Origin: a virus
Lineage: Duplodnaviria; Heunggongvirae; Uroviricota; Caudoviricetes
Reading direction: 5' to 3' (one strand)
IMG/VR virus record: IMGVR_UViG_2917413769_000005
DNA length: 30,838 nt
Position numbers and translations under genes: made by a program
In this document: in pieces, positions 1 to 7,784 of the stretch
Numbering within the stretch: the first letter of the stretch is position 1
Layout of the letters: every line of letters starts with the position of its first letter
The notes under the pieces: model-generated
What the model was told of the DNA's origin: nothing
Seen by the model: only the letters and a program-made list of their open reading frames with translations
Database searches by the model: none

Positions 1-384
1 TCACTCATCAGCGCCGCACTTATCTCTGTAGCTAGAAGGTACTGGCTCGCTAAATCGGGTATAGATTTTTTTATCTGTTACATAGTATGAAACGCCAGCT
101 GAAAATATACCTTTGGGTTTCATGCTGATTTTCATGATGAATGGAGAAAATCCTTCATAGGCTCCGAAGCCATTTTTTCCATTGATCTGGCCGCATACGT
201 AGCCAACAGTAGCGCCTTCCGATGATTGCTCAGTCTGAACAAATCTTAAATATCTAAATTTAACGCTATCTGGATCCCTAACGTCAGTTGCTATTTCCTT
301 CTTACCTAATTCAACTGCTTTTTCTGCGCTTGGCTTGCATCCAACGAGAGAAACCAAAGCCAGTATTAACAACACCTTTTTCAT
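1..384 (-). CDS. predicted lipoprotein, function unknown (possible moron or flanking host gene)
   Basis: 127-aa ORF; N-terminus MKKVLLILALVSLVGC is a type II signal peptide with lipobox Cys; ATG at 382-384 preceded by GGGATAGGGA; stop TGA at 1-3; visibly AT-richer than the phage genes. Confidence 0.55.
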   Translation of the reverse strand: MKKVLLILALVSLVGCKPSAEKAVELGKKEIATDVRDPDSVKFRYLRFVQTEQSSEGATVGYVCGQINGKNGFGAYEGFSPFIMKISMKPKGIFSAGVSYYVTDKKIYTRFSEPVPSSYRDKCGADE

Positions 385-509: not shown

Positions 510-758
510 TCAGAGAGCCAGATTAAGCTGGTCTCTGCCGTAATGTGATGCCGGGAAGGCATCGCGGGGGATGAAGTCAGGCGGTAGCGATGCAACACCT
601 GCGCGTTTTGTTACTTCCCTTTCCACACTGTTAAGCGTGGTGAATGACCGGCTACATTCCAGATTCTGACACTGGTGATATTGCCGGATTGTCATATCGG
701 TTATTTTACGGCTGGTACGTGTGCGGGCCATAGCGCCGCAAAATGGACATCTGAACAT
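510..758 (-). CDS. ogr: Ogr/Delta-type zinc-finger late transcription activator
   Basis: Translation MFRCPFCG...RTSRKITD...YHQCQNLECSRSF matches the Cys4 Ogr pattern; ATG at 756-758 with GGGGAG upstream; the ORF-track start at 791 has no RBS. Confidence 0.75.
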   Translation of the reverse strand: MFRCPFCGAMARTRTSRKITDMTIRQYHQCQNLECSRSFTTLNSVEREVTKRAGVASLPPDFIPRDAFPASHYGRDQLNLAL

Positions 759-797
759 AATGATGGCTCCCCTGTGGGAGTTGAACTCCATTTCATT

Positions 798-1934
798 TTA
801 TTCAGTTTCCGCGATCCAGTCAGGTATTTTCGCTTCCAGCTCCAGCCGGGTGGTAAAACCGCTGTCGTCTATGACGTGCTCAGCACGCGCAATGATCCAA
901 TCCTGATTATCTATTTCATCCTTAAAACCACTTACCGTGACGTGCATTTCCGGGTAAAGCTCAGCGCGGCCACGCGCCAGGGTGATCGAAAACTCTGCTG
1001 CGCCACGCTGAAGCTGTTGCCACTTTGCCGCCGCCGCACGTTTCGCCGCCTCTTCATTCTGGTAGGTTTTGCGCAGCACATAAACGTTACCGTCTGCGCC
1101 CTCCATGTAATCGCCCTCGCGGCTGCTGCTCTTCTCTTTTTTGGGCTTTGCAGGTTTGCGGCGCTTAACGCTGACCTTTTTCTTTTTGCCAAAATTCAGA
1201 TCCAGCCAGTAAGCCCGGACGCCGGTATAGGCATCCCGATCGGCAATACGAAAGCGATGCCGGTCGCCACTTGTGCGATCAATACTGGCAGAGGGGAGCG
1301 CCTTCCCGTCAGCGGTCACACCACCACCCGGCAGGATAAACAGCAGACTGCCGTTCTTGACGGTGGCAATTGCGCCCAGCATGTCCGCCATGCGAGTAAG
1401 GAATGACATATCGCTTTCCTGCGTCTGGTCGGCGTGATCAATCTCAATATCTATGAGCATTTCACTGATCTGCGCCTTCAGTCCGTAGCGGTGCGCTATT
1501 GCCGACACAACTCGCTCAACGGTCACGTCATGCCATGAGACTTCGCGCTTTACGTTGAATTCTTCACGAAAATCAGCGCTGCGGGCAGTAACGCCAATGG
1601 TATCTGCCGGGCCTTCGTGGGAAACCTCGTCAACCGTGTACAGCCCCTTGTAAATCAGCGGTTCACCCAGCCAGCCAAATGATACGGCAAGCTCAGCCCC
1701 GCGCGGCGGCAGTGCAACCATACCGTCACTGTCATCAATGGAAATAGATAGCTGATCAGCATCAAAGCCCCTGTTGTCCGTCAGTGACAACGACATGATC
1801 CGATCATCAAGCTGCGTCAGTACCTTGCCGCCCATCGTAATGTTGAATCCCGGACTTTTTACCGCTTCGGTCAGTGAATCGTTATAACTGCTGACTGCGT
1901 CGTTAAGTGATTTGGTCAGGTCTGTAAGTGCCAT
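798..1934 (-). CDS. D: tail protein D (late control gene D family)
   Basis: 378 aa with GDRHRFR..RDAYTGV and C-terminal LQRGAAEFSITLARGR..TRLELE pattern typical of P2 gpD; RBS AAGGGGGA before ATG at 1932-1934. Confidence 0.85.
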   Translation of the reverse strand: MALTDLTKSLNDAVSSYNDSLTEAVKSPGFNITMGGKVLTQLDDRIMSLSLTDNRGFDADQLSISIDDSDGMVALPPRGAELAVSFGWLGEPLIYKGLYTVDEVSHEGPADTIGVTARSADFREEFNVKREVSWHDVTVERVVSAIAHRYGLKAQISEMLIDIEIDHADQTQESDMSFLTRMADMLGAIATVKNGSLLFILPGGGVTADGKALPSASIDRTSGDRHRFRIADRDAYTGVRAYWLDLNFGKKKKVSVKRRKPAKPKKEKSSSREGDYMEGADGNVYVLRKTYQNEEAAKRAAAAKWQQLQRGAAEFSITLARGRAELYPEMHVTVSGFKDEIDNQDWIIARAEHVIDDSGFTTRLELEAKIPDWIAETE

Positions 1935-2042: not shown

Positions 2043-3269
2043 ATGGGGGATTATCACTGCGAACTCAATAACGTAATGGTGGAAACTATGGCGGAAGATC
2101 GCTTTCATGGTGCCCGCATCCGGGAGAATACCGACCTTGTGGCGGCTATCAATGACATTGAATCGAATGTCATTGGGGTCGTCGCCGTGGCGGATGATGC
2201 CGATGCGGAAGCCTTTCCCCTGAATACCCCCGTGTTAGTGACGCGGGTTAACAACGTGCTGGGTAAGGCGGGTAAAACCGGCTCCCTGTACAAAACGCTT
2301 AAGGCCATCGCTGACCAGACCAGCCCGAAGGTGATCGTTGTGCGCGTGGCAGCAGCTACGGAAGAGGAAGGCGGTAAAACGCAGGCACAGCTTATCATGG
2401 GCGGCACGGCAGAAGACGGCAGCTATACCGGCATGTACGCATTCCTGACGGCAGAACAGAAGGTCGGCTATCGTCCGCGCATTCTGGCTGTGCCGGGATA
2501 CGACACGGAAGAAGTGACCTCCGCGTTGTGCGTCATTGCGCAAAACCTGCGCGCGTTTGTCTATGCCAGTTGTTACGGCTGTAAGACGATGGCGGAAGCC
2601 ATCACCTATCGCGCAACCTTCGCCTACCGCGAACTTATGCTTATCTGGCCTGATTTCATCGCCTATAACCCGCTGACCGGAGAAAACGAAACCTTCCCGG
2701 CCCCGGCGTATGCCTGCGGCCTGCGTGCGCTGATTGACAACAATCAGGGCTGGCATAAATCGCTTTCCAACGTATCAGTCAACAACGTGCTGGGTATTTC
2801 TCAGGATGTTTTCTGGTCGCTTCAGGCAGAAGACAGCGACGCGAACGAACTGAACAACAAGGAGATCACGACGCTCATCAAGCGTAACGGATTCCGGTTC
2901 TGGGGAAACCGCGTCACGGATACCAAAGATTACATCTTTGAGGTTTATACCCGTACCGCCCAGATTCTGGCTGACAGCATTGCGGAAGCGCAGTTTGAGG
3001 CCATTGACGAACCGCTTACCCCAGCGAACGTCAAGGACGTGGTGAGCGGTATCAGCGGGAAACTCAGCTCGCTGGTGACGCAGGGGCGGCTAATCGGCGC
3101 TGAATGCTGGTTTGATATCCTGGATAACCCGACAACCGGGCTTCGACAGGGTCAGGTGCGCATTCGCTATAAATATACGCCGGTTCCGCCGATGGAGGAT
3201 CTGACGATGTACCAGACCTTCACCGATGAATACTTTGAATCGGCGTTCTCTTCGCTGGGAGGTGCATAA
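2043..3269 (+). CDS. FI: contractile tail sheath protein
   Basis: 408 aa; N-terminal MGDYH and overall pattern (DADAEAFPLN, RAFVYAS, GFRFWGNR, YKYTPVPPMEDL) match P2 FI. Confidence 0.9.
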   Translation: MGDYHCELNNVMVETMAEDRFHGARIRENTDLVAAINDIESNVIGVVAVADDADAEAFPLNTPVLVTRVNNVLGKAGKTGSLYKTLKAIADQTSPKVIVVRVAAATEEEGGKTQAQLIMGGTAEDGSYTGMYAFLTAEQKVGYRPRILAVPGYDTEEVTSALCVIAQNLRAFVYASCYGCKTMAEAITYRATFAYRELMLIWPDFIAYNPLTGENETFPAPAYACGLRALIDNNQGWHKSLSNVSVNNVLGISQDVFWSLQAEDSDANELNNKEITTLIKRNGFRFWGNRVTDTKDYIFEVYTRTAQILADSIAEAQFEAIDEPLTPANVKDVVSGISGKLSSLVTQGRLIGAECWFDILDNPTTGLRQGQVRIRYKYTPVPPMEDLTMYQTFTDEYFESAFSSLGGA

Positions 3270-3785
3270 ATGGCGGTTCCCCACAAACTGCGCCTGTTCA
3301 CCTGCTTTGTGAACGGCAGCAACTGCATCGGCAAAGTCTCTTCCGTGACGCTGCCAAAGCTGACACGTAAAACGGAAGACTTTCAGGGCGGCGGGATGAT
3401 TGGATCCGCTGCGGTGGATCTCGGTCTGGACAGTGGCGCGCTGGATACCACGATGGTGGTTGGCGGTCTGGTTCAGTCGCTTCTGCTGAACTACTGCGGC
3501 GATATCGACGAGACCCGCTTCCGCTTCGCCGGCGAGTATTACACCGATGGTGAAAGCCTGCTGGTTGAGGTCGAACTGCGCGGCCGCATCACCGAAATGG
3601 ACGGCGGTGAAAGCAAGCAGGGAGAAGACACCTCCGTCAGCTACACGATGAAGAACACCTACTACAAGCTCACCATCGACGATAAGCCGTTGTTTGAGTT
3701 TGATCTGCTGAACTTCATCTACAAGAAAGACGGCAAGAATATCTACCCTGACCGCATTACGTCTGCGCTGGGAATGGGTAACTGA
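3270..3785 (+). CDS. FII: tail tube protein
   Basis: 171 aa; VTLPKLTRKTEDFQGGGMIGSAAVDLGLD matches P2 FII; starts directly after the FI stop. Confidence 0.9.
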   Translation: MAVPHKLRLFTCFVNGSNCIGKVSSVTLPKLTRKTEDFQGGGMIGSAAVDLGLDSGALDTTMVVGGLVQSLLLNYCGDIDETRFRFAGEYYTDGESLLVEVELRGRITEMDGGESKQGEDTSVSYTMKNTYYKLTIDDKPLFEFDLLNFIYKKDGKNIYPDRITSALGMGN

Positions 3786-3833
3786 TTAACCTGATAAGTG
3801 GCGGCACACCCGTGCCGCCCGGAGTATTCAACA

Positions 3834-4151
3834 ATGAGCAAAAAAAACGATAACGCCATTACGCTGGCAAAACCCGTTGTTCGCGGCGATGAGAAAATTA
3901 CTCAGGTAACGATCACTGATGAGATCAAACAGGCTGGTTCCCTGCGCGGGCTGAAGCTGGTTAACGTGATGAATATGGATGTGGATTCAGTAGCGATATT
4001 GCTGACCCGCGTCACGTCACCGCGCCTCAAACAAACCGAGATCAACGAAATGGATACCCGTGATTTTGTCAGCCTGTCAGAAGCGCTCGTCCCTTTTTTG
4101 ACGCCTGCGGGGTCTGGAGCATCGAACGAGGCGGAGACGGAGAATCAGTAA
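3834..4151 (+). CDS. E: tail assembly chaperone E
   Basis: ATG at 3834 (MSKKNDNAITLAKPVVRGDEK) with GGAG 9 nt upstream; contains slippery T_TTT_TTG at 4094-4100 near its 3' end as in P2 E. Confidence 0.8.
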   Translation: MSKKNDNAITLAKPVVRGDEKITQVTITDEIKQAGSLRGLKLVNVMNMDVDSVAILLTRVTSPRLKQTEINEMDTRDFVSLSEALVPFLTPAGSGASNEAETENQ

Positions 4152-4312
4152 CACTCCTGCGGTTCGACCTGATCGACGATCTGGTCGCTGATATCGCGGT
4201 TGTTTTCAACTGGCCGCCCTCTGAAGTCTTCACGATGGAACTGGGCGAAGTCATAGCCTGGCGTGAGCGGGCGGCTGTCCGAAGTGGAGCCAGTGACAGT
4301 GAAAAGCCTTAA
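3834..4312 (+). CDS. tail assembly chaperone E+E' fusion made by -1 programmed ribosomal frameshift
   Basis: Slippery heptamer TTTTTTG at 4094-4100; the -1 frame reads on through ...WPPSEVFTMELGEVIAWRERAAVRSG... to TAA at 4310-4312, overlapping the start of T. Confidence 0.6.
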
Positions 4313-6797
4313 TATCCGCGTCGCGTTCAGCGCGATCGATAAACTTACCCGCCCGGTCAATGCCGCCCGCCAGAGTGCGGGCGGTTTGTCTGAATCCCTC
4401 AAAAAAACGCAATCCAGCATTAAAGATCTGGACAGCCAGTCCCGCACGTTCAACCGTCTGCGCGACAGCGTACAAAAGACCTCTCGCAAAATTGACGAAG
4501 CCAGCCGGACGCTTGAAGGGCTGAATCAGGCGCAGCGGGAAGGTACACAGCTTACAGACAAGCAAAAAGCACATATGGCAGCACTGGCCGCAAAGCTGGA
4601 GCGCCTTAACTCTGCACGCACGCAGGAAATGGTTAAGCTGCGTGCTGCCTCACAGGCGCTGCGCAGCCACGGCGTTTCACTGGTCGGCAGTGATCGCACC
4701 ATTCAGAGCGCGATACGTCGAACCGAACAGTACAACCAGACGCTGGAGCGGGAACGGCGACAGCTTGCCGCTGTCACACAGGCACGGGCGCGCTATGACC
4801 AGATGCAGCAAACAGCGGGTAAACTTCGCGGCGGTGGCACGATGGCCGTTGCCGGGGCCACTGCTGCCGGTTACGCAGCGGGACGCTTCTTATCCCCCGC
4901 TGTTGGGTTTGACCGGGAAATGTCCCGCGTGCAGGCGCTGACCCGTATAGATAAAAGCTCAACAGACTTTTCAGCACTTCGTGAACAGGCCAAAAAGCTG
5001 GGCGCTGAAACGCAGTTCACCACGACTGACGCCGCCAGCGGGCAGGCGTTTCTCGCTATGGCCGGTTTCACTCCGCAGGCCATTCAGGCAGCACTGCCCG
5101 GCGTGCTCAATATGGCACTGGCCGGTGGCATGGATTTAGGTGAAAGCGCCGATATCAGCTCAAACATCCTGTCTCAGTTCCGCCTCGATCCCAAAGAAAT
5201 GGATCGCGTCAGTGACGTATTAACTGGCGCGTTCACACGTACCAACACCGATCTGCAAAATATCGGTGAGGCTATGAAGTACGCCGGGACAGGTCTTTCC
5301 AATCTTGGCGTCAGTGTTGAACAGACAACAGCCATGATCGGCGTGATGGCAAACGTTGGCCTGCGCGGGAGTATCGCCGGGACAGGATTACAGGCCGCGT
5401 TTTCACGCCTTGCCGCGCCAACCGGCAGGGCAAAAACCGCTCTCAAAGAACTGGGAGTAGACGTTGCTGATGCCACGGGGAAAATGCGCCCTGCTGAAGA
5501 GGTTCTCACTGAACTCTATAAAAAGATCAGCAAGTACGGCGATACCGACAAGCTCTCTTTCTTTAAAGATATCGCCGGTGAAGAGGCGTCAAAGTCATTG
5601 CAGGCACTGGTTATGTCAGCCGGGAGCGGCGAACTTCAAAAGCTGCTGGAAGCACTGAAAAACGCCAAAGGTGAGGCACAGAAAGCCGCCAAAATAATGG
5701 CGGATAACCTTGATGGCGATCTCAAGAATCTGGACAGCGCATGGGAAGGGTTTCGCATCCAGATTAACGATCTCGTCGATAACCAGCTTCGCGCCCTGAC
5801 TCAGGGGCTGAGTGATGTTGTGGGGAATATGACGCAGTGGGCGAAGGAGAATCCGAAGCTCGCTCAATCCCTGCTGGTTGTCGGCGGCAGCATTCTGGCA
5901 CTGACCGCCGCCATTGGCGGCACATCGCTGGCGATCGGCCTGCTGATGGGGCCACTGGCTAAACTCCAGTTAGGTTTTACCCTATTGACAGGGGGCGCAA
6001 CCGGAACAATCTCCGCCCTACGAACGCTCGGAACAGCTTCCGGCCCGGCAATGGCAAGTGTGCGCGGTTGGGGGCCTGTTCTCACATCAATGCTTAGTAA
6101 GCTGCGAGGCATATCGATCATCACGCCCGGCATTCGTGCCGGTCTTATGGGTGCGTTTCTTTCCCCAGGGGCTGCATTAGGATCTCTGTTCAAAAACATC
6201 GGAATGCTCGCTCTTCGCCTGACAGGCTTTACGACCATATGGAGCATTATCACGACCTCAGTATCTGTACTGGGTGCAGCGCTCTCACTTCTACTTAGTC
6301 CGATTGGTCTGATAGCGGCGGCTTTTATCGCTGCCGGATTGCTAATCTGGAGATTCTGGGAGCCGATAAGAGCCTTTTTCACCGGTTTTTTCAGCGGAGT
6401 TATGCAGCAACTGGCACCTTTCCGTGATGCCTTTTTCCCTTTGACGCTGGCCTTCTCAGCAATAGCCAAAGTCGTTGGTGAAGTCTGGGACTGGTTTGTA
6501 AAACTCTTATCACCTGTGGAAAGTAGCCGTGAATCCCTTGATAAATGCGCATCAGCAGGGGAAACATTCGGTAAAGTCCTGGGTAGCGCCCTTCAGTTGC
6601 TGCTATTACCTCTGACAACCCTCATGGAAGGCATTGGCTGGGTACTGGAAAAACTCGGCCTTATCCCTTCTGGTCTGGAAGCTGCACGCCTGAAAGCTGA
6701 AAGCCTTAAAAAAGACCCTGTTATGTGGGAGTGGGATCCGCAGCAGAAAAAAAATGGTGCAAAAGGGATGGAACTGGTCGCCAGTCTCATCAGGTAA
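4299..6797 (+). CDS. T: tail tape measure protein, N-terminal and main part (frame 0)
   Basis: Long coiled-coil-rich then hydrophobic Gly/Ala-rich protein typical of tape measure proteins; likely GTG start at 4299 (GGAG 9 nt upstream; alternative starts 4263-4293); frame ends at TAA 6795-6797 just after an A8 run. Confidence 0.8.
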   Translation: MKSLNIRVAFSAIDKLTRPVNAARQSAGGLSESLKKTQSSIKDLDSQSRTFNRLRDSVQKTSRKIDEASRTLEGLNQAQREGTQLTDKQKAHMAALAAKLERLNSARTQEMVKLRAASQALRSHGVSLVGSDRTIQSAIRRTEQYNQTLERERRQLAAVTQARARYDQMQQTAGKLRGGGTMAVAGATAAGYAAGRFLSPAVGFDREMSRVQALTRIDKSSTDFSALREQAKKLGAETQFTTTDAASGQAFLAMAGFTPQAIQAALPGVLNMALAGGMDLGESADISSNILSQFRLDPKEMDRVSDVLTGAFTRTNTDLQNIGEAMKYAGTGLSNLGVSVEQTTAMIGVMANVGLRGSIAGTGLQAAFSRLAAPTGRAKTALKELGVDVADATGKMRPAEEVLTELYKKISKYGDTDKLSFFKDIAGEEASKSLQALVMSAGSGELQKLLEALKNAKGEAQKAAKIMADNLDGDLKNLDSAWEGFRIQINDLVDNQLRALTQGLSDVVGNMTQWAKENPKLAQSLLVVGGSILALTAAIGGTSLAIGLLMGPLAKLQLGFTLLTGGATGTISALRTLGTASGPAMASVRGWGPVLTSMLSKLRGISIITPGIRAGLMGAFLSPGAALGSLFKNIGMLALRLTGFTTIWSIITTSVSVLGAALSLLLSPIGLIAAAFIAAGLLIWRFWEPIRAFFTGFFSGVMQQLAPFRDAFFPLTLAFSAIAKVVGEVWDWFVKLLSPVESSRESLDKCASAGETFGKVLGSALQLLLLPLTTLMEGIGWVLEKLGLIPSGLEAARLKAESLKKDPVMWEWDPQQKKNGAKGMELVASLIR

Positions 6798-7281
6798 AAA
6801 CAATAACGGGAATACACCCCCGCCCGGAACGCCGCAACCCACATCACCGCTGACCGGCGATAACGGCACTATGCGTCGATTGCAGAACATCGACAGCAAC
6901 ACCAAAGCGACAGCCGACAACACGAAGAAGATCGGCCCCGGCGATATTGTATTTAAAAACCTGCCGCGTGCTCTGGCCGTTCGTGGGGAATGGAAAGAAT
7001 CGCAGCTGGCCAGCACGGTCAGGAACAACGGGTTAAGCGCACGCCCCGCAGTGGTGGCGGCATCGCTTCCCGTAAAACAGGCGGAACTTCCGCCAGTCAG
7101 CCGCAGCGCCAACAATATACCGGTTGCCACTGGCGGCTTTACGGGAGAAATCCACGTACACCTGCACGGCGTTGACCGGCAGGACGCGCGCGAAATTGGC
7201 CGCATTGCTGCCGACGCGGTGAATGCCGAAATTGCCCGCCTTGCGCGGCTTAATCGCGGCAGTTTCAAAGACAGAGATTAA
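6754..7281 (+). CDS. tape measure protein C-terminal segment in +1 frame (frameshifted T or separate ORF)
   Basis: Frame open from 6694; fills the T-U gap where P2 has no gene; ends ...IGRIAADAVNAEIARLARLNRGSFKDRD right before the U RBS; frame change coincides with A8 at 6747-6754. Confidence 0.5.
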   Translation: MVQKGWNWSPVSSGKNNNGNTPPPGTPQPTSPLTGDNGTMRRLQNIDSNTKATADNTKKIGPGDIVFKNLPRALAVRGEWKESQLASTVRNNGLSARPAVVAASLPVKQAELPPVSRSANNIPVATGGFTGEIHVHLHGVDRQDAREIGRIAADAVNAEIARLARLNRGSFKDRD

Positions 7282-7295
7282 GGGGAGGCAACATT

Positions 7296-7784
7296 ATGAT
7301 GATGATATATGGGATGTTCGTTTTTGAACTGAAGACGCTGCCTTACCAGCAACTGCGCCACTCGCTGAACTGGCGTCATGTGAAGAATGATCGCATCAAC
7401 CGATCGGCAAAATGGCAGTACATCGGCGCAGGTGAGACGCAGATCAACCTTGATGGAGTGCTCTACCCTGAAATTACAGGCGGAGACGTATCTCTTACCG
7501 TGCTGGCAACGCAGGCATACACTGGGCGTCCGTGGCCTTTAATCAGCGGCGCGGGGCAGATTTACGGGATGTATGTGCTGACCGGACTACAGGCCACGCA
7601 TACGGAATTTGACCGCTACGGAAAGGCGAAAAAAATAGAGTTTTCGATCAGCTTCCAGCGCTGCGATGAAGACCTGCGCGAACGCCTGCAAGCGTCGTCT
7701 GTTGGCGATCTGCTTTCAGGGCTGAAGGATAAAGCCACGTCCGCCTATAATTCTGCCAGTAGTACGCTGTCGGGCCTGTTCTGA
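7296..7784 (+). CDS. U: tail protein U
   Basis: 162 aa MMMIYGMFVFELKTLPYQQLRHS...GVLYPEITGG pattern of P2 gpU family; strong RBS AAGGGGAGG 7 nt upstream. Confidence 0.85.
   Translation: MMMIYGMFVFELKTLPYQQLRHSLNWRHVKNDRINRSAKWQYIGAGETQINLDGVLYPEITGGDVSLTVLATQAYTGRPWPLISGAGQIYGMYVLTGLQATHTEFDRYGKAKKIEFSISFQRCDEDLRERLQASSVGDLLSGLKDKATSAYNSASSTLSGLF

Follow-up and report, generated by a model that had tools for sequence, protein, structure and literature searches.

A polybasic loop in the baseplate hub protein gpD of a P2-type prophage lies at a family-wide insertion hotspot

In phage P2, the baseplate hub is gpD (AAD03295.1), an essential tail protein. In the T4 hub protein gp27, the second tube-like domain is built from residues 207-239 and 307-368, and it is interrupted after about 33 residues by a 67-residue segment, 240-306 (PMC3004832). 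Here, the gpD of a 30,838-nucleotide stretch of viral DNA (IMG/VR record IMGVR_UViG_2917413769_000005; referred to as the window) was analyzed with regard to a Lys/Arg-rich stretch inside the protein. This basic stretch, which is inherited from the P2 clade and normal for the phage group, is neither anomalous nor the product of a frameshift or an assembly artefact. The site at which it lies, between a hairpin and a strand-helix unit, is a family-wide insertion hotspot. We tentatively read the segment as a clade-typical polybasic loop of the P2-family hub that may act as a flexible electrostatic tether to acidic baseplate neighbours, and we hold this reading with somewhat less than even confidence. 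The gene and the peptide concerned are the following.

798-1934, minus strand: gpD, baseplate hub protein of 378 amino acids (open reading frame, Pfam, P2 similarity and fold)
1122-1193, minus strand: basic peptide FGKKKKVSVKRRKPAKPKKEKSSS, residues 248-271 of gpD (computed coordinates and K/R density)

The gene is an ordinary gpD orthologue encoding a P2-type baseplate hub, and all membership tests that could be run agreed on this. The Pfam family PF05954 (Phage_GPD) matches residues 132-357 with 61.9 bits against a cut-off of 30.1 (E = 7e-17). P2 gpD is 48% identical over 371 residues (E = 1e-117; query residues 27-378), and the Enterobacter phage phiT5282H protein AYD79773.1 (Peduoviridae, Novemvirus), which is annotated only as a hypothetical protein, is 98% identical. 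An AlphaFold model built from an alignment of 45 sequences reached a mean predicted local distance difference test score (pLDDT) of 83 and a predicted template modelling score (pTM) of 0.78, and a gp27-like hub fold is predicted. The top Foldseek matches of this model were all hubs: AlgoCIS, the Anabaena contractile injection system (CIS), pyocin R2 (6u5h), PVC, P1, MuSo2, Mu gp44, VgrG from a type VI secretion system (T6SS) and T4 gp27. The E values against CIS and phage hub structures ranged from 1e-23 to 1e-17. Residues 1-26 form a predicted helix (pLDDT 73-82). P2 gpD lacks an equivalent of it, and among close homologues no other part of the protein is less conserved (26-33% identity).

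The K/R density of FGKKKKVSVKRRKPAKPKKEKSSS is far above chance. Lys and Arg account for 12 of its 24 residues and for 12.7% of the whole of gpD, which is net acidic (48 K/R vs 60 D/E). When the gpD sequence was shuffled, 52 of 100,000 shuffles reached the same level, and the binomial expectation for such a density, taken over all gpD windows, is 0.004. The earlier note from which this analysis started had quoted the 24-residue peptide as a Lys/Arg-rich stretch inside gpD. The peptide is present exactly as quoted, and the feature was thus correctly recognized, with its position, given as 1130-1200, shifted by about 7-8 nt. Weak matches of the loop to ribosomal and ribosome-biogenesis proteins in the PDB (E = 0.3-0.9) are compositional and were ignored.

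The loop was then compared between named phages. Length and net charge were measured between the conserved anchors YTGVxAxW and NxKxLRxTY, with the following results.

Window gpD: 38 amino acids, net +7
P2 gpD: 56 amino acids, net +12, with 19 K/R
186-like Yersinia phage MLG42: 39 amino acids, net +6
Salmonella SEN5: 44 amino acids, net +8
Burkholderia Mana: 38 amino acids, net +11
Ralstonia RsoM1USA: 45 amino acids, net +5
Mannheimia PHL101: 76 amino acids, net +12
Pseudomonas Dobby (phiCTX-like): 17 amino acids, net about 0 to +3
Burkholderia KL3: 18 amino acids, net about 0 to +3
Vibrio vB_VpaM_MAR: 17 amino acids, net about 0 to +3
Wolbachia WO: 16 amino acids, net about 0 to +3
Xanthomonas M29: 16 amino acids, net about 0 to +3
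E. coli ECO1230-10: 16 amino acids, net about 0 to +3
Pyocin R2 hub PA0628: 25 amino acids, net 0

Pairwise alignment places KDPKPQKQKVKLKRKKKEKHLRALEHPKAKPVRQKKAPKVPEAREGEYM of P2 gpD at the equivalent site, so that P2 carries a polybasic loop in the same position, between YTGVxAxW and the strand-helix unit. Both proteins share a KxKVKLK strand and the end motif REGEYMxGE, and the REGDYM motif is common to the window protein, P2 and the 186-like phages. The P2 loop is 18 residues longer and more basic and has an extra HPKAKP element. In phiT5282H the loop is nearly identical to that of the window, with KRRKSVKPKK in place of KRRKPAKPKK. An H-P-x-A-K motif is found in longer loops of 48-56 amino acids, namely in P2 gpD (L001:1462-2625, LEHPKAKPV) and in the representatives P0138, P0153, P0164, P0174, P0218 and P0233, and is missing from the 38-residue loop of the window; it may be a docking motif of the longer loops.

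These comparisons bear on the suggestion of the earlier note that the stretch is a lineage-specific insertion, possibly missing from P2. An insertion peculiar to this phage group and without an equivalent in P2 gpD would agree with the absence of the segment from 54% of the distinct representative loops described below and from phiCTX-like, KL3, VHML-like, WO and Xanthomonas phages, as well as with the short, uncharged version in pyocin R2. However, the longer and more basic equivalent in P2 refutes this idea for P2 itself, and the segment occurs in all 120 closest homologues and in several other Peduoviridae genera. We therefore consider such an origin very improbable.

To locate the basic stretch in the fold, the AlphaFold model was read together with the conservation of the surrounding residues. 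The region divides into four parts.

1206-1229, minus strand: upstream anchor YTGVRAYW, residues 236-243, first strand of a beta-hairpin (conservation and model)
1164-1187, minus strand: KKKKVSVK, residues 250-257, second hairpin strand (model strand and alignment to minimal homologues)
1092-1163, minus strand: RRKPAKPKKEKSSSREGDYMEGAD, residues 258-281, clade-specific insertion predicted to be disordered (pLDDT and absence in minimal homologues)
1005-1085, minus strand: downstream strand-helix unit, residues 284-310, VYVLRKTY followed by a helix, which closes the variable region (model and conservation)

Within the anchor, G238, V239, A241 and W243 are nearly invariant across the representatives. 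The model shows a strand at 238-245, a tight turn and a strand at 250-257, with a block pLDDT of 76-86. The segment GKKKKVSVK aligns with the family-wide hairpin strand (A/G)-K-R-x-x-V-x-V of homologues with a minimal loop of 16 amino acids; among the 67 minimal homologues, 32 have K or R at position 250 and 44 have R or K at position 251. Within the basic segment, KKKKVSVK is the ancestral portion and forms the second strand of this conserved hairpin. The following residues behave differently in the model: no secondary structure is predicted over 258-283, and pLDDT falls below 50 over 262-281. Segment 258-281 is absent in the minimal-loop homologues. RRKPAKPKKEKSSSREGDYMEGAD has a polybasic front, and its end carries the conserved (R/K)(E/Q)GDY(M/L)xG motif. 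Downstream, a strand at 284-291 and a helix at 294-310 are predicted with pLDDT 80-92, and A297 and A301 are invariant. As modelled, FGKKKKVSVKRRKPAKPKKEKSSS is half hairpin strand and half disordered linker, and the insertion is confined to the second half.

The distribution of the loop was analyzed in the whole family. An exhaustive HMMER search of 50%-identity representatives returned 3,279 relatives, and loops were sampled from the best 150. Duplicate loops were removed before counting, which left 124 distinct representative loops. In many of the best 150 relatives the alignment breaks at query residues 250-256 or thereabouts. More than half of the distinct loops (67/124) are minimal, with 16-19 amino acids and the consensus H-D-x-x-x-A-K-R-x-x-V-x-V-G-x-x. 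Loops of 20-60 amino acids make up 25/124 with a net charge of at least +5 and 23/124 without that charge, and 9/124 are 99-176 amino acids long. Medium inserts average 23% K/R, compared with 12% in the gpD core. The segment is thus an insertion relative to an ancestral-looking minimal form, but a widespread one. Of the insertion proposed in the earlier note, the second half stands against the minimal form of the family, whereas the first half, GKKKKVSVK, is a strand that the whole family has. The note had also held that presence of the segment in most gpD homologues would refute its proposal; this is the case among the P2-like phages of Enterobacterales, but not across the whole family.

In a neighbour-joining tree calculated with the loop masked, polybasic inserts of unrelated sequence stand beside 16-residue sisters at five places or more (P0232, P0230, P0169, P0142 and the P0157/P0173 group). 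This suggests that polybasic inserts were gained repeatedly. Several further observations were made at the site. In the homologues P0130, P0134, P0136, P0137, P0141, P0158 and P0175, the loop position, which corresponds to window 1092-1205, holds 99-176 additional residues. By eye, these very long inserts contain one or two extra copies of a module consisting of a Y-x-G-V-x-A-x-W hairpin, a KVLRxTY strand and an A..AA..W helix. Such copies would mean that a hub sub-domain was duplicated in tandem; self-BLAST of these homologues did not find significant internal repeats. Chimeric gene predictions were frequent among representatives of odd length with 186-type loops (P0126, P0127, P0129, P0133 and others), and P0126 fuses the GPO scaffold protease to GPD. 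The chimeric representatives probably derive from misassembled short-read contigs, and counts are inflated unless they are de-duplicated.

Conservation at close range was determined in 120 homologues with at least 72% identity to the window protein. The loop is kept in 120/120 of them, with 35-41 amino acids and a net charge of +3 to +10, although 79 distinct loop variants occur. Per block of ten residues, GKKKKVSVK is 84-95% identical; SSSREGDYMEG is 84% identical, and both equal or exceed the gpD average. In the centre of the loop, the differences are K/R swaps and insertions or deletions of 1-3 residues, with the charge retained.

A neutral low-complexity expansion could explain this pattern. 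According to this explanation, the segment has no specific function, and A-rich Lys-codon sequence at a permissive surface turn expands by slippage or duplication. The runs of AAA and AAG codons in the coding DNA, the predicted disorder, the frequent small insertions and deletions in a loop centre that is the least conserved part, and the range of inserts at the site, from 16 to 176 amino acids and both basic and non-basic, all agree with it. Against it, positive charge is retained despite the sequence turnover in all 120 close relatives as well as in P2, 186-like phages, SEN5, Mana, RsoM1USA and PHL101. Moreover, the flanks GKKKKVxVK and REGDY(M/L)xG are more conserved than the protein average, HPxAK is shared by the longer P2-type loops, and K/R enrichment recurs in inserts of unrelated sequence. 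Neutral expansion is a serious possibility, if an unlikely one.

The A-rich runs CCCAAAAAAG and GCAAAAAGAAAAAG also raised the question of a coding trick, either programmed ribosomal frameshifting or an overlapping +1-frame open reading frame (ORF) starting inside the basic segment. An 86-residue ORF in the +1 frame does begin at nt 1192 (window 932-1192, minus strand). However, both heptamers of the X_XXY_YYZ type are out of phase for -1 slippage. The 98%-identical phiT5282H gene has a shortened version of the alternative ORF, P2 has none, and the placement of the ORF differs in other relatives. In all homologues the zero frame remains conserved across the region. A frameshift or overlapping gene at the A-runs was rejected on the phase of the heptamers and on the lack of conservation of the ORF in phiT5282H and P2, and we rate it as extremely improbable.

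With regard to function, the tether that we tentatively favour would work as follows. Residues G249-K257 are the second hairpin strand in the second tube-like half of the hub, with a basic pair that is common across the family, and R258 to about D281 form an insertion of roughly 24 residues at the hotspot, predicted to be disordered and rich in K, R, P and S. Three such loops per hub trimer would present about 39 K/R side chains on flexible tethers. The loop would lie on the outside or the spike-proximal side of the hub, away from the lumen. With 100-176 additional residues tolerated there in homologues, it is very unlikely that the loop faces the 25-30 Å lumen or a tight interface. In the assembled baseplate, the loop could rest against acidic neighbours, with the wedge protein gpJ as the best candidate. 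The net charge of gpJ is -22 in the window, -18 in P2 and -17 in Dobby. In Mu, the hub is adjoined by the pin domain of the gpJ homologue and makes contact, through its own C-terminal domain, with the spike and with the tape measure protein (PMC11915804). Between hub and wedge ring there is a 3-fold to 6-fold mismatch, which a disordered charged tether would suit. On contraction, the hub would carry the loop into the anionic envelope of the cell. The motifs REGDY(M/L)xG and, in longer P2-type loops, HPxAK hint at specific docking.

Polybasic loops shift the charge of the hub subunit from about -4 to about +5. Intramolecular charge compensation was considered and rejected, since the loop charge does not offset that of the gpD core (Spearman rho = +0.21). 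A subunit that is turned net positive without its core being offset argues for an external partner. Several points weigh against the tether. The orientation of the loop in the assembled hub is one that we infer. Dobby gpJ is about equally acidic although this phage has a minimal loop, so that the three phages compared (n = 3) give no signal of co-evolution. About half of the medium-length inserts are non-basic, and positive charge is accordingly not obligatory. The central PAKPKKEK block is the most variable part of the loop (61% vs about 85% in the flanks), and the tree that separates the polybasic inserts is rough, with long branches and without support values. Finally, an hhalign comparison of the gpD family profile with T4 gp27 gave no significant similarity (probability 0.8%); a 44-column match of query 320-364 to gp27 312-355 has a plausible register but is non-significant, and is a weak hint. 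A published functional description of the loop was not found in the literature searched, which did not cover a 2026 P2 virion preprint that is likely to show the loop.

The external partner might also be the envelope itself. In this case, the polybasic loops would primarily bind the anionic envelope after contraction and help the tube tip to dock for DNA transfer, with lipopolysaccharide (LPS) phosphates, phosphatidylglycerol and cardiolipin of the inner membrane or peptidoglycan-associated anions as targets. Envelope contact is the main rival to the tether, and we judge it to be unlikely on balance. Located at the tip of the tube, the hub is believed to be directed at the periplasm and inner membrane after loss of the spike (PMC3004832; PMC11054660). 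Modules that bind the envelope occur repeatedly on this hub or close to it. The gpD homologue P0137 (558 amino acids) ends in a peptidoglycan-binding domain of the OmpA family (PF00691, E = 4e-22, residues 455-549). A tail-protein gene abuts D in WO, where it is gpX, and in ECO1230-10, where it is a 'putative phage tail protein'; we take the gpX adjacent to D to be of the LysM type. Kondou et al. reportedly described, in 2005, a positively charged membrane-facing surface on Mu gp44. In addition, the polybasic loop makes the hub subunit net positive rather than neutral, and the apparently repeated gains of polybasic inserts fall in phages of Gram-negative hosts. In contrast, T4 gp27 binds liposomes weakly and not firmly (PMC11054660), many P2-family phages on similar hosts manage with a 16-residue turn, and the loop is probably enclosed by the wedge ring in the virion.

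A bolder version builds on one or other of these ideas. The polybasic loop might be a repeatedly evolved and functionally required element, either a flexible adaptor that keeps the 3-fold hub in the acidic 6-fold wedge ring up to the moment of firing or a first grip on the anionic envelope. We regard this as doubtful. If it were true, particle stability or host penetration would be adjusted through the length and charge of the loop.

The genomic surroundings of gpD were also inspected. The window is a P2-type prophage with ogr, sheath, tube, E, tape measure (T), U, G, H, I, J, W, V, S and R genes, lysis genes and, at the far end, an integrase. In E. coli, prophages of this type are rare (9 of 5,426 complete genomes match); the closest protein clusters are those of Kluyvera, Enterobacter, Klebsiella and Serratia. 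The gene that follows D is listed here.

510-791, minus strand: ogr/Delta-type zinc-finger late activator, immediately downstream of D (phrog_603 transcriptional regulator, E = 8e-16)

The adjacency of D and ogr is the same in P2. The D-ogr module (510-1934, minus strand) is inverted relative to the FI-FII-E-T-U operon (2043-7784, plus strand), from which it is separated by a divergent intergenic region of 108 nt (1935-2042). In P2, by contrast, D closes the F operon, coming after U on one and the same strand. As phiT5282H has the same divergent D-ogr/FI arrangement as the window, the inversion is a trait of the Novemvirus group. Beyond ogr, at the prophage end, a 127-residue ORF (window 1-384, minus strand) has a lipoprotein-type signal, MKKVLLILALVSLVGC, and matches phrog_2320 (unknown function). 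Since phiT5282H carries a cpdA phosphodiesterase gene downstream of ogr, where the window has the lipoprotein-like ORF, this slot is a variable cargo ('moron') position.

Two genes of the plus-strand operon showed irregularities. The tape measure gene seems to be split into overlapping ORFs at 4263-6797 (plus strand, 844 amino acids) and 6754-7281 (plus strand, 175 amino acids), which match consecutive parts of phrog_17114 (positions 26-187 and 212-388). In a blastn comparison with the intact 988-residue gene of phiT5282H, only nt 37-2102 and 2558-3019 align. It suggests either a frameshift (pseudogene or sequencing error) or a replaced middle section at about 6365-6820. The sheath ORF (2043-3269, plus strand) has its ATG 15 codons upstream of the conserved MAEDRFHG. 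Since its PHROG match starts at residue 11, translation probably begins at the internal Met at about nt 2088.

Taken as a whole, a turn of the hub took up polybasic tails, non-basic linkers and whole repeated modules, which marks the hotspot as an exposed and engineerable site. For work on contractile tails and tailocins this is of modest use, and it raises the testable question of what the positive charge does. The hotspot and the pattern of repeated gain are a small but testable side observation of little importance for this genome itself.

Among known hubs, the pyocin R2 protein PA0628 (PDB 6u5h) is the sole solved structure that is detectable by sequence (E = 6e-40), and it has the same hub fold (Foldseek E = 2e-22). 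Unlike the window loop, the PA0628 loop lacks a lysine run. With 318 of 329 residues modelled in 6u5h, this short loop is probably ordered. A different kind of comparison is offered by polybasic linkers that tether proteins to membranes or partners, a class of short linear motifs; these are disordered and dense in K/R, and their charge is conserved while their sequence is not. The gpD loop resembles them in two respects, the charge that is kept while loop sequence and length drift and the predicted disorder; residues 250-257 are a confident strand. The likeness is one of analogy, without homology, and it holds only if the loop is indeed an electrostatic tether. The hubs of T4 and Mu, gp27 and gp44 (PDB 1k28, 1wru and 9ki1), have the same gp27-like fold as gpD (Foldseek E = 1e-14 to 6e-18), and the interruption of T4 gp27 lies in the same general place as the insertion hotspot of gpD. 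In T4 the insert is a folded domain, whereas in the window gpD it is a disordered basic loop.

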